The notes under the pieces are model-generated. The model made no database searches. It saw only the letters and a program-made list of their open reading frames with translations, and had not been told where the DNA came from. From contig MFUG01000016.1 of the NCBI GenBank assembly GCA_001785615.1, forward strand, positions 13,752 through 77,751: a stretch of 64,000 nt of DNA. Reading direction: 5' to 3'. The position numbers and the translations under genes are program-made. Origin of the DNA: Candidatus Nomurabacteria bacterium RIFCSPHIGHO2_02_FULL_42_19 (GTDB taxonomy: Bacteria; Patescibacteriota; Minisyncoccia; Phycocordibacterales; UBA9973). Below are positions 3,030 to 58,915 of this stretch, piece by piece (position 1 is the first letter of the stretch; every line of letters starts with the position of its first letter).

Positions 3030-3893
3030 TCATTTTTTTAATATTCCTTCTGGCCTCACTAAAAGCACAATGATAAGAATTACGAATGGCACTGCTTGTT
3101 CCCAGCTTCCCCCAAAAAACACAACAGTTAATTTTTGCGCTATTGCTAAAATGAAAGCGCCGATAATCCCGCCCCAAAAACTTCTTATTCCGCCAAGTAC
3201 AGATATAACTATTACTGGAAGCATAAAGAGTAGTCCGGAAGCTGGTACAATACCCACATTCAATCCTTGAATTATTCCACCCAAGCCCGCAAGCGCTCCC
3301 CCAATAAAGAAAAGTTGGGAAAATATTTTTCCTTTGGGTATGCCTACGAGCTCTGCTACTTCACTATCATCTTCCACTGCCCTAATTACACGCCCAAAAT
3401 GTGTTTTGAAATAAATAAAAGCAAAAATACAGATCAGAGTAAAAATAATGATAATAGCTAATGCCTCTACTATATTTAATGTTCCGCCAAAGATATTTAA
3501 AGAATGAATATCGCTCAAACGACGCGCAATGATCGTAGCTTGGCTACCAAAAATCATACCTAACACGGAAGATGTAGCGGTTAGAAAACCAAAGGAAGCA
3601 ATCAGGAGAACGAAGTTGTTGGCTTTTCGATTGATAAGGAAACTAAAAATAAATTTATGTGATAAAAAAAGATATAACCCTGAAATAAAAAGGCTTAGAA
3701 AAATAGCGGGGATAAAAGAAATAACAAGCACGCGGTAAAATAAAAACATCATGTACCCCCCAACGAGGAACGCTCCACCATAAGCAACATTAAAAAACTT
3801 CACGCTACGTAAAATAAATCCAAAACCTATAACTAATAAAGAGTATAAAACGCCAGCATAAAGGATATATAAAATTATTTGCCAAGTTATCAT
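3030..3893 (-). CDS. livH: ABC transporter permease (LivH-like)
   Basis: Multi-TM permease adjacent to the substrate-binding protein gene. Operon order SBP-H-M-G-F. Confidence 0.7.
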   Translation of the reverse strand: MITWQIILYILYAGVLYSLLVIGFGFILRSVKFFNVAYGGAFLVGGYMMFLFYRVLVISFIPAIFLSLFISGLYLFLSHKFIFSFLINRKANNFVLLIASFGFLTATSSVLGMIFGSQATIIARRLSDIHSLNIFGGTLNIVEALAIIIIFTLICIFAFIYFKTHFGRVIRAVEDDSEVAELVGIPKGKIFSQLFFIGGALAGLGGIIQGLNVGIVPASGLLFMLPVIVISVLGGIRSFWGGIIGAFILAIAQKLTVVFFGGSWEQAVPFVILIIVLLVRPEGILKK

Positions 3894-5238: not shown

Positions 5239-5418
5239 GGCGATCAGAACACGCTGTTAATGCCAGCGCCTGCAAGACGGGCACGGAATTCGCCCATCCC
5301 CTTTCCACTATCGCGCGCCAGCGCGCGACCGATTTTTTCGCAGAAGTTCACGATTGTCCGTCCTCTTGGACTCGAATCCCGAAGAAAAGCATAACTTTCT
5401 ACGGGACAGGCCAAGAAC
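5239..5418 (-). ncRNA. GC-rich hairpin-dense element downstream of the tRNA (candidate structured ncRNA, identity unknown)
   Basis: About 180 nt at roughly 60% GC in an AT-rich genome. It carries several perfect GC stems (tcgcgcgc/gcgcgcga) and tRNA-T-arm-like GGACTCGAATCC. It sits between the tRNA and the terminator with no credible ORF. Confidence 0.3.
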
Positions 5419-5493
5419 TGGTGCACGTGCCTGGACTCGAACCAGGAACCTGTCGCGTATAAGGCGAAAGCTCTACCATTGAGCTACACGTGC
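5419..5493 (-). tRNA. tRNA-Ile (anticodon UAU), CCA encoded
   Basis: Reverse complement is GCACGTG-TA-GCTC-AATGGTA-GAGC-T-TTCGC-CTTATAC-GCGAC-AGGTT-CCTGG-TTCGAGT-CCAGG-CACGTGC-ACCA. Clean 75-nt cloverleaf with a 27:43 mismatch. Central loop triplet is TAT. Confidence 0.7.
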
Positions 5494-5526
5494 ATGTTTC
5501 AATACTACAAAATTATGGGGAAAAAG

Positions 5527-7452
5527 CTAGCTGGCAACTTCAAGCTTCGCTTTTTCTTCTCGTTTCTTCGGTATTATGCCGTGAGCGATTATTATTTTTT
5601 CGTATTCTTCTTGTTCCAAGGTTTCAACTTCAACGAGCTTTTGGGCAATAGCGTCAAAGGCCTTGCGGTGTTCTTTAAGCACACTCCCCGCGGACGCTAT
5701 TCCGTTGTTTATTATCTTTAAGACCTCCGCATCCACTTTCGCGGACACTATTTCCGAATATCCTTCTTCCCTAACTTCGCCCCATTCCACTCTGCGGCCA
5801 CCACGGTCGAGCGCCACTGGACCGATAACATCCGACATCCCGAAGCGGGTCACCATCGCCCGAGCTAAATTCGTCGCTACCTGAAGATCGCTAGATGGCC
5901 CTGTGGTGATATCCCCGAAAATCATTTTTTCCGCTACGTATCCGCCTAAAGACATGGCAATATCGTCGATGAATTCTTTTTTGGACTGAAGGCGCTTCTC
6001 TTCAATCGGCAATTTCAAAGTATAGCCCCCGGCGCTCCCGCGAGCGATAATGGAGACCTTGTGCACTGGATCAGCATAAGGTAAAACGGAAGCGACCAGG
6101 GCATGTCCGGCTTCATGGTAAGCGGTAATTTCTTTTTCTTTTTTAGAAAGTAAGTGGCTTTTGCGTTCCGGGCCGAGCATTACTTTCTCAATCGCCCGAA
6201 TGAGGTCAAATTGGAAGACCTTTTTGCGGTTTTCGCGAGCGGCCAGAATCGCGCCTTCATTCATCAGGGAATATAAATCAGCGCCGGAGAATCCCGGCGT
6301 GCGCTCGGCAATTAATGTTAAATTAATATCTTCCGCCAGTGGCTTTTTTACGGCATGAATTTTTAATATCTCTTCTCGATCTTTGCGATCCGGCATGTCT
6401 AGGAGAACTTTCCGGTCAAAGCGTCCGGGGCGGATCAGAGCCGGGTCAAGCACATCGGGCCGGTTGGTCGCCGCCATTACAATAACTTTTTCATTCGGTT
6501 CAAAGCCGTCCATTTCCACTAGAATTTGATTTAGGGTTTGCTCGCGTTCGTCATTCCCTCCGCCAAAGCCGCCCCCGCGAGTCCGCCCGATGGCGTCTAT
6601 TTCATCCACGAAGATAATGGCCGGAGCCGCCTTTTTCGCCATCTTAAATAAATCGCGCACGCGGGATGCGCCCACTCCCACAAACATCTCAACAAATTCA
6701 CTGCCAGAGAGATGAAAGAATGGCACATTGGCTTCGCCGGCGACGGCGCGAGCGAGCATCGTTTTTCCCGTTCCGGGTGCTCCTGTCAGTATTACGCCTT
6801 TCGGAATCCTGGCGCCAATATCCAAGAACTTTTTCGGGCTTTTCAAAAAATCCACGATTTCTTTCAATTCTTCTTTCGCCTCTCGGCAGCCGGCCACATC
6901 CTTGAAAGTTACTTTATTATTTTTATCGTTCGGGTCAGTGATGCGCGCCTTGGACTGGCCGAAAGTCATGGCCTGAATGCCGGCGCCTTTTACCTGGCGC
7001 GATAAATACCAAAAGAAAAATACAATAAACAAAATCGGCAAGAGGAAAGGCAAAATATTCAGAAGCCAAAAACCAAAACCGCTTTCATTTTTTACTTCGA
7101 TGGCTGTGCTCGAAAGCGCTTCAGGCCCTACCCCATAGTTAAAGAGTGTCTGGGAAAGCGAAGACCCGGTTTCTTTCTTGGACTGTTTTATTTCTTTGTT
7201 TTTATAAGTAATAGTTAGTTTTTCTCCCTCCACTAAAATTTTGGCCACTTCGCCCGCACTGACGCTCTTCGCCAAGTCCGAAATAGCTACTTCGGGCATC
7301 TCTTTTGCGGTGTCGGAGACCACTAAATAAAGTCCAGTAATGAGCATGAAAATCAAGAGCGCTCCAGCAATATTGCCCGAGAATTTGCTCCTGCTATTCC
7401 CCTTTTTCATTTTATTCGGCTCACTGTTCTGGCCCAGAAAGTTAAAATCCAT
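5527..7452 (-). CDS. ftsH: ATP-dependent zinc metalloprotease FtsH
   Basis: N-terminal TMs, AAA Walker A GAPGTGKT, second region of homology, HEAGHA zinc motif. 641 aa. Confidence 0.95.
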
Positions 7453-7516: not shown

Positions 7517-7963
7517 ATGGCTCATTACGCCGAAAACAGAAAAGCGCGATTTAATTATGAAGTATTGGAAAAATACGAGGCGGGTATTGAGCTTTTCGGT
7601 ACGGAAGTAAAGTCAGTGCGAGGAGGGCAGATGTCGCTCGAGGGTGCCTTCGTGATTGTTCGCGGTGGAGAAGCGTATTTAATTAATGCAAATGTTCCTT
7701 CATATCAGCCGAAAAACGCACCGAAGGACTACGATCCTTTACGCAATAGAAAACTTTTACTGACAAAAAAGGAAATTTCCACACTTTCGGGTAGCGAGAA
7801 AAATAAAAGTTTGACAATTGTGCCTATTTCAGTGTATAATAAAGGGAGGAAGATAAAGGTAGAAATTGCACTCGTGAAAGGGAAGAAAAAATATGACAAG
7901 CGTGAGAGTATAAAGAAGCGCGACACGGATCGTGAGATACGAAGAGAGTACAAAGCACGTTGA
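7517..7963 (+). CDS. smpB: SsrA-binding protein SmpB
   Basis: ENRKARFNYEVLEKYEAGIELFGTEVKSVR is the canonical SmpB N-terminus. Ends with TGA stop. Confidence 0.92.
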   Translation: MAHYAENRKARFNYEVLEKYEAGIELFGTEVKSVRGGQMSLEGAFVIVRGGEAYLINANVPSYQPKNAPKDYDPLRNRKLLLTKKEISTLSGSEKNKSLTIVPISVYNKGRKIKVEIALVKGKKKYDKRESIKKRDTDREIRREYKAR

Positions 7964-11273: not shown

Positions 11274-12643
11274 TGGAGCATCACGCTATCCCCCGGCTCT
11301 GGCGCATACGCTTCCAGGCCCAAATTGTCCCGCAATTTCTGTACTAAAAACATGGAACTTTTTGGCTCCCCCATGACGACGAAGACCTTTTTCACAGAGT
11401 CCTGCATGTCGGAAACAAAATTAAGCAAGCCGTCAGAATCCTTGTGCCCTGAATACCCGGAAATGGTTACGATGTGCGCCCTTACTTGTACATATTCCCC
11501 GGAAATTTTTACCGTCTTTACCCCTTCCTGAATCAGGCGCCCTGGAGTGCCTACGGACTGATATCCGGTCAAAAGCAGGGTATTGTTCGGATCCGGCAGA
11601 TAATGTCTTTCGTGGTGCACTACGCGGCCACCAGCGGACATTCCCGAGCCCGCAATGACTATCTTGGGATTTGGAACATTTCCGATTAATTTGGACTCCT
11701 CGGAGTGTAGCGTAGAACGAAGCCCGGGGAAACTGAATAAATGCTTGTCGCTTGATAGGACTTCTTGCGTATGTGCATTAAAATAATTTTTATATTGTTT
11801 AAAAATTTCAGTCAGGCGAATAGCAAGCGGAGAATCAAGGAAGATAGGCATCACGGGGATGCGATGATTCTCCACTAGAGAGTTGAGTTCAAATAAAAGC
11901 TCTTGAGAACGTTCCAGTGAAAAAGTGGGTATGATCAACGTGCCTTTTCTTTTATAATTATCTTCAATGACTTCTTCCAGGAATTTTCTGCGGTCGTCCC
12001 TGGACTCATGGTTTCGGTCACCATATACGCTCTCCATAATTAAATAATCCACCTCAGTGATTTTTTCGGTGTCCGGCAGTAGTGGTGAAGGACTATTGCC
12101 CAAGTCCCCGGTAAAAAGAATCTTTTTGCCATTATAAACGAACATCACCATCGCCGAGCCCAGAATATGCCCGGCGTTTTTGAAAGAGACCTCTAAGTTA
12201 TCGGCTAGTTGTATTTTCTCATGATAATTAAACCCACTCCAGAGCGAGAGCGCGGTTTTTATATTGTCCGGTGTATAAATTTCATCCAATTTAAGCGCGG
12301 TGTTCTTAGACAATATGCCCATGGTGTCGTCCAGCATCGGCCCGGCGAGCATTTTGGTAGGCATAGTGGAATAAATTTTTCCGCAAAATCCTTCCTGGAT
12401 TAATTTCGGAATCCTGCCTATATGATCCACATGGGCGTGAGTGATAAAAAGAATATCTATCTCTTTCGGATCATAACCAAAAGGCGCCCAGTTCACATCG
12501 TCTATCCACTTGGTTCCTTGCGTCAAACCGCAATCAACCAGAATTTTTTTACCGTCGGCTTCCATTAAAAAATTCGCTCCGGTTACTGAATTTACCCCTC
12601 CGTAAAATGTTATTTTTGCTGTTTTTTCTCCCGTACTTTCCAT
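11267..12643 (-). CDS. metallo-beta-lactamase / beta-CASP family RNA-metabolising hydrolase (RNase J/CPSF-like)
   Basis: HAHVDH (HxHxDH) motif, beta-CASP-sized middle region, 458 aa. Confidence 0.7.
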   Translation of the reverse strand: MESTGEKTAKITFYGGVNSVTGANFLMEADGKKILVDCGLTQGTKWIDDVNWAPFGYDPKEIDILFITHAHVDHIGRIPKLIQEGFCGKIYSTMPTKMLAGPMLDDTMGILSKNTALKLDEIYTPDNIKTALSLWSGFNYHEKIQLADNLEVSFKNAGHILGSAMVMFVYNGKKILFTGDLGNSPSPLLPDTEKITEVDYLIMESVYGDRNHESRDDRRKFLEEVIEDNYKRKGTLIIPTFSLERSQELLFELNSLVENHRIPVMPIFLDSPLAIRLTEIFKQYKNYFNAHTQEVLSSDKHLFSFPGLRSTLHSEESKLIGNVPNPKIVIAGSGMSAGGRVVHHERHYLPDPNNTLLLTGYQSVGTPGRLIQEGVKTVKISGEYVQVRAHIVTISGYSGHKDSDGLLNFVSDMQDSVKKVFVVMGEPKSSMFLVQKLRDNLGLEAYAPEPGDSVMLHC

Positions 12644-46805: not shown

Positions 46806-47300
46806 TTATTGCTTAGAATACTTTTCGACTTTTTTATTTAAAATTTCTAATTTAACTCCAGCCCGTTTCAACATTTCTTTACTCCTCGCCGACGCATGGT
46901 AATCCATTTCAGCCACCACTCTTTTTATACCGGCAGTAATGGCAAGCTTGGCACACACGTGGCATAGAACCATTTTACAATATATCGTAGCCCCTTCGAG
47001 TGGTACTCCAAAACGGGCGGCTTGAATCATCGCATTCTGTTCCGCATGAATTGTTCGTATACAATGTTCAGATTTGGTGCCGTCTTCATTGATCACCATA
47101 TGCATATCATGCCCAACTTCATCGCAATGCGGAAGCCCCGGTGGAGAACCTACATAGCCAGTAGAAATTACTCTTTTTTCCCGAACAATCACACATCCAC
47201 TCCTCCCCCTATCGCAGGTAGCGCGAGTACCCACATAATTTGCCATACCGATAAAATATTCATCCCAGGAAGGTCTTTGATATTTAGAATTTTTTTTCAC
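46806..47300 (-). CDS. dCMP deaminase (cytidine/deoxycytidylate deaminase family)
   Basis: HAEQNA zinc motif and CxxC (LCHVCAK). Confidence 0.8.
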   Translation of the reverse strand: MKKNSKYQRPSWDEYFIGMANYVGTRATCDRGRSGCVIVREKRVISTGYVGSPPGLPHCDEVGHDMHMVINEDGTKSEHCIRTIHAEQNAMIQAARFGVPLEGATIYCKMVLCHVCAKLAITAGIKRVVAEMDYHASARSKEMLKRAGVKLEILNKKVEKYSKQ

Positions 47301-48001
47301 TTCTTTAATATACTCCCAAAAAGCGGTAGATACAAGTCATTTTTCGGACTAATTTTTAGTTCTTTTTTGTTTATTTTTTCGGTAAATACAACGGGAGCAT
47401 TTGTTATTACGGCAAGTGGCTGCTGTTCTTTCCCCTCTCCCATGCAAACGACGGCAGCCGTGGCCAGACTGTCTGCCACATCTGTTTTTGACATCTTTAG
47501 GATTCTGCCAAAGATATCTTTTCCCCCTACATAGTTGCGTACCCCCTGAAACCCAGCATAACCTAGCGCCACCCCGACAATTCCAGCTCGTAGCGGAAAA
47601 ATTCTACTATCGGTAATGAGTACGCCAAGGTTTTTAATTTTAAATATTTTTCTAAGTTTTTTTCTAATTAATTCTGCTGAAATAAAGCTATCTTTTGGTA
47701 AAAGTATCAGCTTGCCTTTCGCATTAGACTCATCAATGCCAGCGGAAGACATTACCATACCATCTTTGATGGTGAGCCAAGTTTGTTTTGTTTTGATTGC
47801 GTAGCTACTTTCTTTTTTTATAAGAGCGGCTTTTTGTTCCTTATTTTTATAATCTATTGTTCTGCCTTCGGAAAGAGCGACAATTTTTGAAGTAATAACT
47901 AGGACAGACTTCTCTCTCATTTTTTTGACATATTTTAAGACAAAAGAAAACAGATCTTCATTCTCGCGGAATATTCTAGTTTTGATCGCTTTAATTTGCA
48001 T
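47297..48001 (-). CDS. CofE-like gamma-glutamyl ligase family protein
   Basis: SSAGIDESN motif and size (234 aa) match the F420-0:gamma-glutamyl ligase (CofE) family. Confidence 0.5.
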   Translation of the reverse strand: MQIKAIKTRIFRENEDLFSFVLKYVKKMREKSVLVITSKIVALSEGRTIDYKNKEQKAALIKKESSYAIKTKQTWLTIKDGMVMSSAGIDESNAKGKLILLPKDSFISAELIRKKLRKIFKIKNLGVLITDSRIFPLRAGIVGVALGYAGFQGVRNYVGGKDIFGRILKMSKTDVADSLATAAVVCMGEGKEQQPLAVITNAPVVFTEKINKKELKISPKNDLYLPLFGSILKK

Positions 48002-54630: not shown

Positions 54631-54704
54631 TGGGTGCCCGGAGAGAATTGAACTCTCGATATCGGCTCCACAAGCCGAAGTTTTACCACTAAACTACGGG
54701 CACC
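54631..54704 (-). tRNA. tRNA-His (anticodon GUG) with encoded G-1
   Basis: Reverse complement G-GTGCCCG-TA-GTTT-AGTGGTA-AAAC-T-TCGGC-TTGTGGA-GCCGA-TATC-GAGAG-TTCAATT-CTCTC-CGGGCAC-C. The extra 5' G opposite C73 is the His hallmark. Confidence 0.8.
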
Positions 54705-54707
54705 ATA

Positions 54708-55229
54708 TTACGAAGATTTTCTTCGTACTCTATATACTGACAGATTCTTCACAAATTTCAAGGATTCTTCTTTATTATGGTGAACCAAAAAATGACAATT
54801 GTGGCAAAGCCAAGACAAATTTGATATATTATTATTCTTTCTATTCTTATCAATGTGGTGAACAGCAAGTACTCTTTGGTCTTTGGTTTTACATAAAATA
54901 CAAAATTTGGGAATTTTGTGTCTTGATAATACACTTCTATAAGCAAACAATCCCATTTTCCAATTAGCGTGCTTGGCTCCAATAAATTCTTGATTTCTCC
55001 AAACTGTTTGGCAAGATTTGCTACAAAAAAATTTACCACTTTTTGACTTTGTTAATTGTTTTAGTTGTTTGTAAGTTTCTTTACCGCAAATATCACAAGG
55101 CACAATGGCTCCTTTTTTCCTCGCCTGATACTGACACGCAGAAGAACAATATTTTGCATACCCAATTTTGATGTGAGATGGCTTACCATAAAACTCTTTT
55201 GAGCATAATTGACATTTTACTATTGGCAC
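54708..55229 (-). CDS. HNH endonuclease with multiple CxxC zinc-ribbon pairs
   Basis: VHHIDKNRKNNNISNLSWLCHNCH HNH core plus 6 CxxC pairs. Starts 3 nt from tRNA-His. Confidence 0.75.
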   Translation of the reverse strand: MPIVKCQLCSKEFYGKPSHIKIGYAKYCSSACQYQARKKGAIVPCDICGKETYKQLKQLTKSKSGKFFCSKSCQTVWRNQEFIGAKHANWKMGLFAYRSVLSRHKIPKFCILCKTKDQRVLAVHHIDKNRKNNNISNLSWLCHNCHFLVHHNKEESLKFVKNLSVYRVRRKSS

Positions 55230-55320
55230 AGTTTTATTATATCAATAATGGAAAATTATGTAAAGAAAACAATTTGTGGATATTTCTACAATTTGTTATG
55301 CTACTATCAAGTGGAATTTT

Positions 55321-55740
55321 CTAACTAAAGACGGTGAAAATAAAAATCAGAGTAGAAATAAAGGCCGAGACAAGGCACCAAGAGCAACCTTTCTTTAGGG
55401 CGAAAATCTGCACGCCAATAAGATAAAGAGAGAAAAGAAAAGCAGTGGTAGAAATTATTAAACTAAAATCAATTGGAATACTTGAGAAAAAACTTGGGGA
55501 GAAGATTAAAATTATATGCCATAGGGAAATAATGGAATAGTAAAACATCCCCAAGAACTCCACCGGAATGCCAAAAAATCTAGAATAGTCACTATTGACG
55601 ACAGTGTTGCAATCAAACCTTATCGGGCAGACAAGTAATTTGCCAGTTTTTTTATGGTGATAAATATACTTGGCAACCATAAAACCGGAGATCCCCAAAA
55701 TCACAATGGCAACATGTATTAAAATATCATTTTCTAGCAT
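55321..55740 (-). CDS. vitamin K epoxide reductase (VKOR)-family membrane protein
   Basis: Loop Cys pair (VCPIRFDC), FGIPVEFLGMFYY, and TM CxxC (GCSWC). Confidence 0.6.
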   Translation of the reverse strand: MLENDILIHVAIVILGISGFMVAKYIYHHKKTGKLLVCPIRFDCNTVVNSDYSRFFGIPVEFLGMFYYSIISLWHIILIFSPSFFSSIPIDFSLIISTTAFLFSLYLIGVQIFALKKGCSWCLVSAFISTLIFIFTVFS

Positions 55741-55764
55741 TGTGTCTAAAGTATACCAATTTTT

Positions 55765-56300
55765 TTATATAAAACAAAAGCATAAACTAGTTCGCGCCGG
55801 GGGTCTTTGGGAAAAGACCGCGACCGGCGCGAATGTGTGATGGGGGGTTTGTCCCCTAGTCTCGACTGTGCCCATCGGGACCGTTGCCTTGAGCCGCGAG
55901 CGGATTATTGTTGGCCTCCCGTCGTTCTCGACGGTGGTGGTCACGAGCCACGTTCGGTGCCCACTGTGCGATCCGCTCCTCGACGGTGGGCGCCGGCGAG
56001 GGAGGGTCGATTTGGAGTACGGATTCTTGTCTGTACCTCTCAAGATGTTTCCTTGACATTATCTCTCCCTTCTTCCTCGTTAACGACTCGCTGGGCCGTA
56101 GGAAGTGGGTGCCGTGCCCTCCACGCGGGATCACGCAACCATTCATCCTCTTGATGGCATTGGTTCAGATGAAGTATCTTCGCCATGCCCTCGTCTGAGA
56201 CGGGCTTCATGTTCATGGGACCTCCGAAAATAAGAACGCAGAAAACACAACCTAAAATATACTCCCAAAAACACAAAAAATCAACGGTGCCCAGAGGGTT
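55765..56300. other. GC-rich (~60%) island with overlapping SD-preceded small ORFs (56040-56216, 55856-56059, minus strand); foreign-composition DNA
   Basis: Composition break, nested hairpin ttcgcgccgg..ccggcgcgaa. GGAGG-N4-ATG precedes MNMKPVSDEG...; a second ORF, MSRKHLERYRQ..., overlaps it by 20 nt. Confidence 0.4.
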
Positions 56301-56310
56301 CTTGGACTAA

Positions 56311-56538
56311 CTATATTTCTAATCTTTTAATCTTGAAAAGATCATATATAGCAGCAAGTATAAAGACAATCTGCAAAATTATGAATATTGTATCTTGAAG
56401 ATAAATACTATAAATTTCCAGACAAATTCCGCCAATTATAGATAAAATGTTTTGGCGCTTGCGATTTTTTAGCAATAAACCAATACAAATAAAAAAGAGT
56501 CCTACTGCGCCTACTAATTTAAAAATATCTATATCCAT
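56311..56538 (-). CDS. small membrane protein (75 aa; start at ATG 56536-56538)
   Basis: MDIDIFKLVGAVGLFFICIGLL.. gives two TM helices. The longer track ORF would overlap tRNA-Leu. Confidence 0.45.
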   Translation of the reverse strand: MDIDIFKLVGAVGLFFICIGLLLKNRKRQNILSIIGGICLEIYSIYLQDTIFIILQIVFILAAIYDLFKIKRLEI

Positions 56539-56543
56539 ATATT

Positions 56544-56630
56544 TGGTGCGCTGGGGGAGACTTGAACTCCCACGTCCTTGCGGACCTGTGCACCTCAAGC
56601 ACAGATGGTTACCAGTTACATCACCAGCGC
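56544..56630 (-). tRNA. tRNA-Leu (anticodon GAG), type II with long variable arm, CCA encoded
   Basis: Reverse complement GCGCTGG..TGTGC-TTGAGGT-GCACA-GGTCCGCAAGGACGT-GGGAG-TTCAAGT-CTCCC-CCAGCGC-A-CCA. Confidence 0.8.
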
Positions 56631-56659: not shown

Positions 56660-57109
56660 TTATTCCGCGGCTTTGGCTACTGCTTCTGTTTCATTATCGG
56701 CTTCTGAATTGACGGAGCGCATCTTGCGGCGAACATCTTTTATCGCTTTAGTGCGAATATAATATAATTTACTTCTTCGGGCATGGGACTTTTTAATTAG
56801 TTCAATTTTATCTACCATGGGCGAGAAAAGCGGGAAAATTCTTTCAACCCCAACCCCTGAAGCAACTCGGCGCACCGTAAAGGTCGCCCCCGACTCTGTC
56901 CCGTGTTTGCGAGCTAAAACCGTCCCCTCAAATGCCTGGAGACGGAATTTGACGGTTTTTTCCGCTTTTTTGTTGGCTTTAGTGGACATTTTTTCTTCCG
57001 CTATCTTGCTCCACACCCGCACAGTATCCCCGGACCGAAAATCCAGTTTCTTGCGGGTTTCAATATCTACCGAGGTGAATTTAATTTTGTTTAATAAAGC
57101 AGTATTCAT
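56660..57109 (-). CDS. rplS: 50S ribosomal protein L19 (with C-terminal extension)
   Basis: FRSGDTVRVWSKI..RLQAFEGTVLARKHG..GATFTVRR.ASGVGVERIFPL.SP..RRSKLYYIR. Confidence 0.9.
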   Translation of the reverse strand: MNTALLNKIKFTSVDIETRKKLDFRSGDTVRVWSKIAEEKMSTKANKKAEKTVKFRLQAFEGTVLARKHGTESGATFTVRRVASGVGVERIFPLFSPMVDKIELIKKSHARRSKLYYIRTKAIKDVRRKMRSVNSEADNETEAVAKAAE

Positions 57110-57208: not shown

Positions 57209-58915
57209 TTAAAGAAATTCCCCTTGGTAGCACTTCTCACAATAAACTATCTCGGGCCGTTCCGGTGCATACGAAGTCCTAATTGGCTTTTCGCATTTCA
57301 TGCACTCTCGGTCAAAAAAGACAGGCGGGTTAGTACGGACAAAACGCAATTTCTGCCGGCAGTTAAAACATTGAACGGGAAGTGGTAAATTTAATTTACG
57401 CATTAAATTAAGCTCACCCATGGTAAAACGATATGCGTTACTACAATTGTTACATTCAATCACTTCGTTTAAAATAGACTCATCTGTTTCCTTAATAGTT
57501 TTTGGCAAGTCCTTTGCTTTTTTTGTGATATCATATTCATTTTTTATTTCTTCATGCCATTTATAACCTTCTGTTAGTGCTTGTTTTTCACTTTTAGGAA
57601 AAAACTGATATGCAACTGTTTCATTGTAGGCAAAAGGGGTAAGGTCAATTGGAAAAAATTCTCCATACGGCCAAATTTGTCCCTGCTTGTCTTTATAGGG
57701 ATTCGTTTTCATATCTTTAATAATTTGTGCCTTTAATTTTTCATATTCCGCTTTTGAATATTCTTTGTTGAGGATGCAATATCGTTTCTTCTTCAGATTA
57801 ACACTACCAAAACAATCTCTACATCCATTAAGGGCGTACATGCAATATTCTATATCGAGGGCATTAGGCCAGCATTGGTAAGAAAATTTAACGTTACTTG
57901 CTCCTTCCCCACTTATAGCAGATTCATAAATTTTCTCAGAATTGTTACCCCAGCCTGTGTAATCATAACAATCTTTGGCTTTTGCCAAACTTACAATTTG
58001 GGTATATTTTCCGTCTTCCACTCCGGAAACCATATAGCAATCTCTGGCATTTTTCGATTCATAAATATAGTCACCAGACACATTCTTATTTAAAGCGTTC
58101 CCGATATAAAATCTTCTCGGATATTTATTCCAAAATTCAAATGCTTTTTCGCGCATCTCGTCTAAGTTTTTACGCGAATCAAGATTGTATTCTTTCAATT
58201 TTGCAAAATAATTTTCACGCGAATACTGTTCATTAAAGATACAATAACTCTTATTTCGGAGATTTACACAGCCAAAACAATTTACCAAACCGGAACAACT
58301 GCGGGAAAACAGAGTATCCGTACAAGCATCGCATTCTTCGGAGAAAAAGGTTTTGTAGCACCTATCGCATCCCACAGATTCATAACATAATTCAGATTCT
58401 TTCATGCGATAACAATCTATCGAGTCTTTCAGCCCCGCGAGATATGAGGAATAGAAAACATTATCGCAATAATCTGCCCAAAATGTCATATAACAATTTT
58501 TCAGGTGAGCAACAGCATTCGTGTATTCGCTATTTTTTAAAGTTAAGTAGTTTAATTCAAGTGCTTGCCAGGGAGTTTTGGCTACTAAATCCTTAAGCTG
58601 TTCAAAAAAGGGGCGACTTGTGTCATATTTTTGCGCATACTCTGTTCCATCCCATGAGTCACTCCACCAACAACGACTGCAAAAGACGACTTCAGATTTA
58701 TCAGGAGAGTGATTAGAAAGAGTTACTTTGCCACATTTGTTACAATTTCTTTTATAAAGATTCCAAACATTCACAAATGAAAATCTTCGAATCATGCGGC
58801 ATTCCGGACACCAAGTCGGCGACGGAACGGAAATTTTTTCATAGAAATTAAAATCTTCCGTTTCTATAACGAAGTCCTTACGACAATTTTGACAAGATTT
58901 AGTTTCTTTATTCAT
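57209..58915 (-). CDS. large cysteine-rich protein (568 aa, ~45 Cys) with terminal zinc-ribbon-like CxxC pairs and internal repeated C..DCFG.VNL..K.YCI.N..YS units
   Basis: CQNCRK..CPEC, CNKCGK..CSRC at the N-terminus. Internal repeats GCDRCYKTF../GCVNLRNKSYCIFNEQYS and GCRDCFGSVNLKKKRYCILNKEYS. C-terminus CNNC..CFNC, CMKC..CEKC. Confidence 0.5.
   Translation of the reverse strand: MNKETKSCQNCRKDFVIETEDFNFYEKISVPSPTWCPECRMIRRFSFVNVWNLYKRNCNKCGKVTLSNHSPDKSEVVFCSRCWWSDSWDGTEYAQKYDTSRPFFEQLKDLVAKTPWQALELNYLTLKNSEYTNAVAHLKNCYMTFWADYCDNVFYSSYLAGLKDSIDCYRMKESELCYESVGCDRCYKTFFSEECDACTDTLFSRSCSGLVNCFGCVNLRNKSYCIFNEQYSRENYFAKLKEYNLDSRKNLDEMREKAFEFWNKYPRRFYIGNALNKNVSGDYIYESKNARDCYMVSGVEDGKYTQIVSLAKAKDCYDYTGWGNNSEKIYESAISGEGASNVKFSYQCWPNALDIEYCMYALNGCRDCFGSVNLKKKRYCILNKEYSKAEYEKLKAQIIKDMKTNPYKDKQGQIWPYGEFFPIDLTPFAYNETVAYQFFPKSEKQALTEGYKWHEEIKNEYDITKKAKDLPKTIKETDESILNEVIECNNCSNAYRFTMGELNLMRKLNLPLPVQCFNCRQKLRFVRTNPPVFFDRECMKCEKPIRTSYAPERPEIVYCEKCYQGEFL

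Follow-up and report, generated by a model that had tools for sequence, protein, structure and literature searches.

Morons, known from lambdoid phages through the work of Hendrix and colleagues, are extra transcription units inserted between conserved genes. Free-standing homing endonucleases, such as T4 SegB and the Mob HNH proteins, are in turn found beside tRNA genes. Here, we analyze the interval between tRNA-Leu(GAG) and tRNA-His(GTG) in a 64-kb window (the whole stretch of DNA studied, to which all coordinates refer) of a Candidatus Nomurabacteria genome from the candidate phyla radiation (CPR). The interval holds E1, a cassette of about 0.47 kb that is rich in guanine and cytosine (GC) and contains two small overlapping open reading frames (ORFs), ORF-A and ORF-B. 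Judged by analogy, E1 would work most like a phage moron. The explanation we prefer, with middling confidence, is that it represents a mini-operon of the moron type, acquired recently and encoding two small hydrophilic proteins.

The likeness to a moron has several sides. E1 is small and self-contained: a promoter leads it and a terminator closes it, both recognized in silico as consensus matches. Its base composition is unlike that of its neighbors, and in relatives the genes and promoter elements on its two sides lie near one another. In one relative (L105), the slot is taken by a different cassette built in the same way. Unlike a moron, E1 resides in a cellular CPR chromosome and not in a prophage, its flanks being rplS, tRNA genes, VKOR, Sua5 and MurB, with no phage genes nearby. 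Its promoter also looks resident rather than imported, and searches of phage collections gave no E1 homolog.

E1 also recalls a type II toxin–antitoxin pair in its two small genes, which overlap within one operon and encode the acidic product first and the basic one second. However, ORF-A and ORF-B matched no toxin, antitoxin or defense profile, are very hydrophilic, and are predicted to form simple helices or to be disordered, with no DNA-binding fold apparent; a toxin–antitoxin reading is favored by the two-gene geometry only. The slot that houses E1 resembles a tRNA-linked island in being bounded by tRNA genes, in the variation of its contents, in the near-empty sites of relatives, in an IS110-like element in one of them (L056) and in possible scars of the tRNA-Leu 3′ end. 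It differs from such islands in having neither an integrase nor clean att direct repeats, and most of its cargo is native in composition and patchily common to relatives.

Relatives’ loci were gathered around orthologs of P568, a gene near the slot, from 79 GTDB species representatives and 80 metagenome loci, 159 in total. The closest P568 matches were metagenome-assembled genomes labeled Candidatus Nomurabacteria, Paceibacterota or Patescibacteria. In the L096 lineage, the nearest relative, P568 is 80% identical and the contig stops 129 nt beyond it. A sequence-only reading of the window had found the interval between the two tRNA genes consistent with a horizontally acquired islet. The parts it listed, namely tRNA-His, an HNH nuclease gene, a VKOR gene, a GC-rich segment and tRNA-Leu, are all present and all on the minus strand. 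Of the islet itself, the foreign character of E1 stands, whereas the other three genes, M75, VKOR and HNH, are native, with positional orthologs in relatives and no integrase beside them.

Composition and boundaries of E1

In transcription order, the minus-strand genes of the region are P568, rplS, tRNA-Leu(GAG), M75, E1, VKOR, HNH, tRNA-His(GTG), DUF1003, Sua5 and MurB (Table 1). The segment 55765–56300, previously put at about 60% GC, has 54.3% when delimited in this way; its core (55790–56228) comes close to that figure with 59.2%, and 200-nt windows reach up to 65%. The reference for these values is the window mean of 41.6%. The 450-nt stretch with the highest GC content in the whole window begins at 55791 (58.4%, about 3.4 standard deviations above the mean). 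Among about 85 ORF-sized units, only E1 and a second segment at 31040–31400 reach 60%, the next highest having 53%.

The codon usage of E1 is likewise non-native, with a mean ln relative synonymous codon usage (RSCU) of −0.11 vs 0.00 to +0.09 in native genes. The comparison of GC content and codon usage that had been suggested earlier sets E1 apart as atypical and leaves M75, VKOR and HNH among the native genes. Within the interval, only E1 is compositionally foreign, and it is probably foreign DNA. Because M75, VKOR and HNH are native and have orthologs in relatives, the foreign part measures about 0.47 kb and not 2 kb.

Table 1. Features of the tRNA-Leu to tRNA-His interval, its surroundings and other GC-rich cassettes (window coordinates unless a locus is named)
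Feature	Position	Strand	Basis or remark
P568, 568-aa Cys-rich protein	57209–58915	−	ORF
rplS	56660–57109	−	upstream of tRNA-Leu
tRNA-Leu(GAG), proximal slot boundary, downstream of rplS	56544–56630	−	ARAGORN
M75, 75 aa, predicted three-helix membrane protein	56311–56538	−	starts 5 nt after tRNA-Leu
CCCTCTGGGCACC, possible recombination-junction scar	56286–56298	−	identical to 3′ end of tRNA-Leu(GAG) allele in L047/L142
E1 promoter-like site TTGATT-17-TATATT, native type	56256–56284	−	promoter consensus match
E1, probably foreign GC-rich cassette, ~0.47 kb	~55785–56250	−	composition
GGAGG Shine–Dalgarno motif within TTCGGAGGTCCCATG (56214–56228)	56221–56225	−	4 nt before ORF-A ATG
ORF-A, 58 aa, acidic (pI 5.5), hydrophilic	56040–56216	−	ORF led by a Shine–Dalgarno motif
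ORF-B, 67 aa, basic (pI 8.4), hydrophilic	55856–56059	−	GGGAGAG before ATG; 20-nt overlap with ORF-A
E1 3′ terminator hairpin	55791–55833	−	inverted repeat I5; fold predictions; minus-strand terminator-like call
VKOR promoter, −10 box TATACT	55750–55755	−	9 nt before ATG
VKOR-family membrane oxidoreductase, 139 aa	55321–55740	−	Pfam PF07884
HNH promoter TTTACA-17-TATAAT with TG	55236–55264	−	ends 6 nt before GTG start, leaderless-type
HNH endonuclease, 173 aa, six Cys pairs	54708–55229	−	PHROG_1271
tRNA-His(GTG), distal slot boundary	54632–54703	−	ARAGORN; Rfam tRNA model, 68.4 bits
E2, second GC-rich (58–61%) orphan	~31040–31400, in the rplB/rpsS gap 30897–31566	−	GC outlier
L105 cassette, ~0.7 kb, 62% GC, between tRNA-Leu and tRNA-His	L105 3150–3870		differs from E1

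At the upstream end of E1, a leader of about 35 nt separates the promoter-like site from the ORF-A region. The extended −10 element shares an exact 16-nt identity (TTTTGGGAGTATATT..) with positions 47307–47322, upstream of a gene ending at 47300, and the site takes the place of a TTTTTTTGnTATAA element that lies between M75 and tRNA-His in relatives. At the downstream end, a small hairpin covers the ORF-B stop codon, and the terminator consists of a 10-bp outer stem (TTCGCGCCGG/CCGGCGCGAA), an inner stem and then a U-rich tail on the minus strand. VKOR’s own promoter follows immediately. Judging from this arrangement, the E1 body appears to have entered downstream of a resident promoter and ahead of that of VKOR.

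A 13-nt stretch at the upstream edge of E1, CCCTCTGGGCACC, recurs as the 3′ terminus of the tRNA-Leu(GAG) allele in two relatives, the window’s own tRNA ending in ...CCCCCAGCGCACCA. Its presence would fit a tRNA-Leu recombination junction and also an ancestral E1 placed directly after tRNA-Leu, as the L105 cassette is, but it is only suggestive: the copy lies inside the interval and not at its border, and the scar is statistically weak, since chance alone would yield 0.37 such 12-mer matches per window. A stray tRNA-Leu(GAG) 3′ end was also seen in L131 (~7605–7622), about 45 nt after the intact gene; together, the two stray ends hint at repeated recombination at tRNA-Leu. An imperfect 18-nt direct repeat (55862–55879 and 56281–56298, 78%) is at chance level. 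A transposon or miniature inverted-repeat transposable element was considered for E1 and rejected, as neither terminal inverted repeats nor target duplications were found.

The same species has been assembled repeatedly from aquifer metagenomes. Over the 2.1 kb spanning both tRNA genes, 16 contigs from several samples show 100% identity with the window wherever they cover it, 11 of them at full length, and one further contig (L089) is 99.7% identical. With the same E1 sequence in at least 16 independent contigs from several samples, an assembly chimera is ruled out. Contig breaks were located in the GC hairpin. The differences in L089 are clustered: five substitutions and one 1-nt insertion fall within about 75 nt (~2545–2620 of that contig, corresponding to window ~55728–55802), spanning the junction of the E1 terminator and the VKOR promoter and including a D-to-Y change in VKOR, while the rest of the 2.1 kb is identical.

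Coding potential of E1 and competing explanations

Codon periodicity was assessed in both ORFs. The frame of ORF-A has GC1/GC2/GC3 values of 0.63, 0.38 and 0.57, i.e., GC1 > GC3 > GC2 (p 0.002–0.003); the ORF-B frame, shifted by one base from that of ORF-A, has 0.71, 0.49 and 0.61 (p 0.014–0.018). For each ORF, the annotated frame scores best among the three, and the periodicity is as strong as in the protein-conserved ORFs of the L105 and L174 cassettes described below. Both overlapping ORFs had been placed behind a perfect GGAGG Shine–Dalgarno (SD) motif; the overlap is indeed there and GGAGG precedes ORF-A, but the motif before ORF-B is a different one.

These features would fit the following scheme. 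Downstream of rplS, tRNA-Leu and tRNA-His would bracket a slot whose contents differ by lineage, filled here by three vertically inherited genes (M75, VKOR and HNH) and by the foreign E1 between M75 and VKOR. HNH and VKOR would each be expressed from their own leaderless-type promoter. E1 would be transcribed from the resident native-type promoter into an mRNA of about 460 nt with two SD-led, translationally coupled ORFs, for which frame-specific periodicity and start-site geometry suggest a coding role. The strong hairpin would end the transcript and insulate VKOR. The ORF-A and ORF-B products would be small and hydrophilic, probably helical or disordered and without an enzymatic domain; their most likely status is that of a neutral or selfish passenger, or of a small binding or regulatory pair.

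A number of observations weigh against this scheme. The codon-aligned antisense frames give an identical periodicity value, so the choice of strand depends on other cues: the promoter, the SD motifs, the ATG starts, the orientation of the terminator, an AT skew like that of minus-strand genes and a plausible amino acid composition. At 60% GC, all six frames of E1 are open for 60–115 codons, and GGAGG is present three times on its minus strand, so that an SD motif before an ATG may be a chance occurrence; for these reasons, neither ORF length nor GGAGG is significant alone. ORF-B is of low complexity and rich in Pro and Arg. Single-sequence AlphaFold2 models of ORF-A and ORF-B yielded simple helices of low confidence, with a predicted local distance difference test (pLDDT) of 64 and 72 and a predicted template modeling score (pTM) of about 0.3. 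The sole single-nucleotide polymorphism inside E1, a strain variant, is nonsynonymous (D18A in ORF-B). Searches against 5.8 billion protein clusters (word-indexed) with ORF-A and ORF-B, and against 1.84 billion representatives (full HMMER) with the 96-aa read-through of frame B, retrieved only the query itself. Neither a donor nor target-site duplications nor terminal inverted repeats were found for E1.

Further searches were made at the level of proteins, DNA and RNA. The homology check proposed by the sequence-only reading identified the HNH protein (PHROG_1271) and returned no homolog of ORF-A or ORF-B in the databases searched: there was no match in Pfam (E ≤ 0.1), NCBIfam, PADLOC or PHROGs (E ≤ 1), toxin, antitoxin and defense profiles included. 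Plus-strand ORFs of E1 had no Pfam match either. Among PDB sequences, ORF-B had no match and ORF-A a single one at chance level (E = 0.69). A tblastn search of plasmids gave no match, blastn against phages and plasmids gave only chance matches of 25–31 nt, and two codon-degenerate E1 patterns were not found in IMG/VR. By blastn, nhmmer and tblastn, E1 was detected in 0 of the 159 relatives’ loci and nowhere else in the window; presence in all relatives with the same gene order, together with a match of the GC-rich part to a known structured RNA, had been named beforehand as what would speak against acquisition. A known structured RNA was rejected for E1, as Rfam 15 gave no family at the gathering score and, at E ≤ 10, only chance-level matches: tsr31 at the terminator hairpin, Ref55 around M75 and mascRNA at the tRNA.

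Orphan status at every level searched would also suit inert debris, i.e., a piece of foreign or environmental DNA that illegitimate recombination had fixed in a permissive slot, with accidental ORFs and at most the function of a terminator. The ORF lengths are as expected at E1’s GC content, the one polymorphism changes an amino acid, disorder is suggested for the predicted proteins, the slot tolerates arbitrary inserts, and a possible tRNA-Leu 3′-end scar lies at the upstream edge of E1. Against this explanation, the periodicity changes frame exactly with the passage from ORF-A to ORF-B, both starts combine ATG with an SD motif at a usable distance, and promoter, two ORFs and terminator share one orientation. 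A fragment of a real gene should moreover have homologs among the 5.8 billion clusters and 1.8 billion representatives, and none was found for the frames tested (for the plus-strand frames, Pfam and plasmids only). We consider debris less likely than a mini-operon, though it deserves to be taken seriously.

The folding data bear on another explanation, in which E1 is a species-specific structured noncoding RNA that is GC-rich for the sake of folding in an AT-rich genome and uses the same promoter and hairpin, its ORFs being incidental. E1 does form a GC island with many local hairpins in an AT-rich genome and its ORFs have no protein homologs; for the 541-nt segment, folding has a z-score of −2.4 (minus strand) and −3.0 (plus strand), no shuffle being as stable, and the other GC-rich orphan of the window, E2, resembles a structured RNA in its fold and its lack of periodicity. 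However, the promoter-to-terminator transcript has z = −1.37, with 7 of 100 shuffles folding as well, compared with −5.69 for the window’s transfer-messenger RNA; its stability is no greater than its composition would lead one to expect. The minimum free energy and centroid structures disagree (−168.5 vs −109.4 kcal/mol). Since the protein-coding L105 cassette itself folds with z = −5.6, strong folding does not tell RNA genes from coding ones in these elements. Codon periodicity is present in E1, no Rfam family matches it even at E ≤ 10, and with no homologs there is no covariation to show. Taken together, we regard a noncoding RNA as rather improbable.

That the whole 2-kb interval is one acquired islet, mobilized by the HNH nuclease or a tRNA-targeting integrase, would account for its variability and near-empty sites, for the HNH gene abutting tRNA-His and for M75, VKOR and HNH being more AT-rich than the window mean, but it is very improbable and, on the synteny data, largely refuted. 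Against it, no integrase is present, the three genes have positional orthologs in different relatives, native codon usage and, for HNH and VKOR, native leaderless-type promoters, and relatives have the parts singly (M75 or VKOR by itself, HNH beyond tRNA-His) and not as a traveling unit.

The variable slot and its native genes

Among the relatives’ loci, rplS followed by tRNA-Leu(GAG) is conserved, and tRNA-His(GTG) is usually next. The tRNA-Leu gene, unlisted by Rfam at the gathering threshold in the window, has a positional ortholog 3′ of rplS in about 60 relatives; positional orthologs of tRNA-His were found as well. The spacing between the two tRNA genes, compared in about 45 relatives, ranges from 2 nt to 2.7 kb. 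It is 2 nt in L008 and 32–131 nt in five loci (L029, L026, L028, L047 and L032), so the near-empty tRNA-His to tRNA-Leu sites that had been looked for do exist. Intermediate distances of about 280–320 nt occur in L030, L038, L048 and L051 and of 0.9–1.4 kb in L018, L043, L031 and L052, and the longest, 2.4–2.7 kb, in L007, L019 and L044.

The cargo of the slot in relatives is equally diverse: M75 alone, an MGMT-like gene with VKOR, MsrB with VKOR, CcdA/thioredoxin with MsrB and VKOR, a CPBP protease with VKOR, a short-chain dehydrogenase/reductase with an adenosyltransferase-like protein, and P-type ATPases. The interval between tRNA-Leu and tRNA-His is a lineage-wide variable slot with varied ordinary cargo. 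No ORF between 54704 and 56543 matched a recombinase in Pfam, NCBIfam or PHROGs, and no clean att repeats were found in the interval. The interval has the look of a slot tolerant of recombination, not of an integrating element. As a tRNA-bracketed CPR interval that serves as a cargo slot and not as an integrase-driven island, it makes a tidy case study, albeit a modest feature.

In L056, the relative with the most similar P568 fragment, IS110-like transposase genes (3353–3727 and 5348–6322) and a helix-turn-helix gene lie between tRNA-Leu and VKOR; the IS110-like label was read from the translations alone. By this label, mobile elements do use the slot. A GC hairpin conserved after tRNA-Leu in many relatives was considered as an element of its own and is most simply a terminator. 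In L118, this hairpin is followed by a convergent gene of 411 aa, which we take to be a copper nitrite reductase. The same locus carries a LOOT RNA at 1107–1223 (Rfam RF03000, 72.5 bits) beside a GC-rich 0.8-kb segment at the contig start.

M75, VKOR and HNH have GC contents of 27–35% (HNH 32.4%), all below the window mean, and a housekeeping-like mean ln RSCU of +0.07 to +0.09. Given their positional orthologs, native codon usage and native promoters (in HNH and VKOR), and the absence of an integrase, these genes belong to the lineage’s own gene pool, being vertically inherited and lineage-typical. M75 has weak Pfam matches to LAB_N and YgjV, and its orthologs in L030, L038, L048 and L051 are 64–74% identical and occupy the same position after tRNA-Leu. 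In all five genomes, the M75 start codon lies 5–11 nt past the 3′ end of tRNA-Leu, at 7–11 nt in the relatives, so near that the 5′ end of the M75 mRNA could arise by tRNA 3′ processing.

The VKOR protein, a disulfide/quinone oxidoreductase, matches Pfam PF07884 with an E-value of 5.2e-23 and 82.1 bits (cutoff 27.5) over 133 of the 134 profile positions. Its loop Cys pair (CPIRFDC) and CSWC motif are both present in the translation and are kept in the VKORs of relatives. Wherever VKOR occurs in relatives, it is directly upstream of tRNA-His, the orthologs in L018, L019, L031 and L043 lying immediately 5′ of it. The arrangement of TGnTATACT, a few bases and then ATG upstream of VKOR recurs in L018, L031 and L056.

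Residues 5–159 of the HNH protein match the HNH endonuclease family PHROG_1271 (1.9e-18), and more than 20 other HNH PHROGs match as well; the Pfam HNH_3 score of 21.6 bits is under the cutoff of 24.8. The gene had been described as starting 3 nt from tRNA-His and as encoding six CxxC pairs. It does adjoin the tRNA and the protein does have six Cys pairs, but the tRNA is faced by the stop codon of the gene, which ends 4 nt short of the tRNA’s 5′ end, and the pairs comprise four CxxC and two CxxxC. Residues H124, H125, N137, N144, H146 and H150 and the pairs C110/C113 and C142/C145 of the putative ββα-metal core are invariant with respect to the orthologs in L030 and L051, and we infer catalytic roles for the invariant His and Asn residues. 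The HNH promoter is the best promoter match of the region (11/12), and the same layout precedes DUF1003 (repeat D1).

Orthologs of HNH, 60–62% identical and with every Cys pair kept, were found only in L030 and L051, where they lie beyond tRNA-His and not before it, giving a patchy distribution of 3 of about 45 comparable loci. Since it stands on opposite sides of tRNA-His across lineages, the gene would most likely act as a homing-type endonuclease of the free-standing kind. It resembles these endonucleases in being a small, independent HNH gene that has a promoter of its own, adjoins a conserved tRNA, is patchily distributed and switches flanks; unlike the examples beside tRNA genes in T4-like phages, it is in a cellular genome. 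The orthologs are intact and considerably diverged, at the identities given above, which suggests long residence.

The earlier observation that native genes mostly lack strong SD motifs was confirmed: 49 of the 67 long ORFs in the window have no SD-like motif before the first start. Many native genes have a TATAAT-like box 6–9 nt before the start, e.g., at 12643, 18555, 41628, 54581, 55229 and 63563. This pattern suggests that leaderless-type expression may be widespread in this Nomurabacteria genome.

Other GC-rich cassettes

E2 sets rplB and rpsS about 670 nt apart and recurs in independent assemblies. Rfam gave no match at the gathering threshold or at E ≤ 10, its longest ORF (80 aa) has no homolog, and no codon periodicity was found. 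The sense strand folds with z = −4.8 vs −2.1 for the antisense strand, and E2 closes with three perfect hairpins, after which a TTGACA-type promoter precedes rpsS. On this evidence it more closely resembles a structured RNA and is a candidate for a novel structured RNA or a cassette.

E1 and E2 have a start context, TTCGGAGGnnCCATG, in common. It occurs exactly twice in the window, against 0.06 occurrences expected even with one mismatch; the second copy, at 31357–31371, stands at the start of E2’s longest ORF and has the same 13 specified bases as the motif in E1. None was found in the relatives’ loci. E1 and E2 were also considered as paralogs, which was rejected, their local alignment being no better than that of shuffles; for this reason the link through TTCGGAGGnnCCATG is suggestive only.

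The cassette in L105 comprises a promoter, two SD-led ORFs (88 and 114 aa) and, as terminator, a GC hairpin whose sequence type is similar to that of E1 (ACGCGCCGG...CCCCGGCGC). A homolog of its second ORF, 50% identical, directly follows tRNA-Leu in L174 (6892–7321), and the two proteins share the motif GFxYxPCHNPxSxYAGLRF...GWGFTP. This family has no Pfam or PHROG match above chance and was not found in phage or viral-contig collections. Kinship with the E1 ORFs was considered and rejected (hhalign probability <1%).

As a long shot, E1, E2 and the L105/L174 cassettes might represent an undescribed class of GC-rich, SD-led mini-cassettes of about 0.4–0.7 kb that colonize the AT-rich, largely SD-less genomes of Nomurabacteria at highly transcribed sites, perhaps coming from GC-rich hosts or their mobile elements and spreading by tRNA-Leu recombination. 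In the literature on GC-rich noncoding RNAs of CPR bacteria and on leaderless or SD usage, no match was found. The recurrence of GC-rich, SD-led cassettes in AT-rich genomes is a more interesting lead than E1 alone. If they do recur as a class, with E1, E2 and L105/L174 as three independent examples, they could mark a flow of DNA into episymbiotic CPR bacteria from GC-rich partners. With such a class, one would also have to ask how SD-dependent genes come to be translated in a genome that otherwise relies on leaderless-type starts.

Two minor observations concern the surroundings of E2 and of the slot. In two short rpsS contigs of the same species (L180 and L181), rpsS is followed by the gene for S5 or S8 and not by that for L22; these contigs are either assembly artifacts or come from strain variants that have lost a large piece of the ribosomal-protein operon. 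The family of P568, itself a protein with many CxxC pairs and no Pfam domain, occurs in tandem arrays of up to about eight paralogs in Parcubacteria-type genomes (L010, L016, L067, L072, L079 and others).

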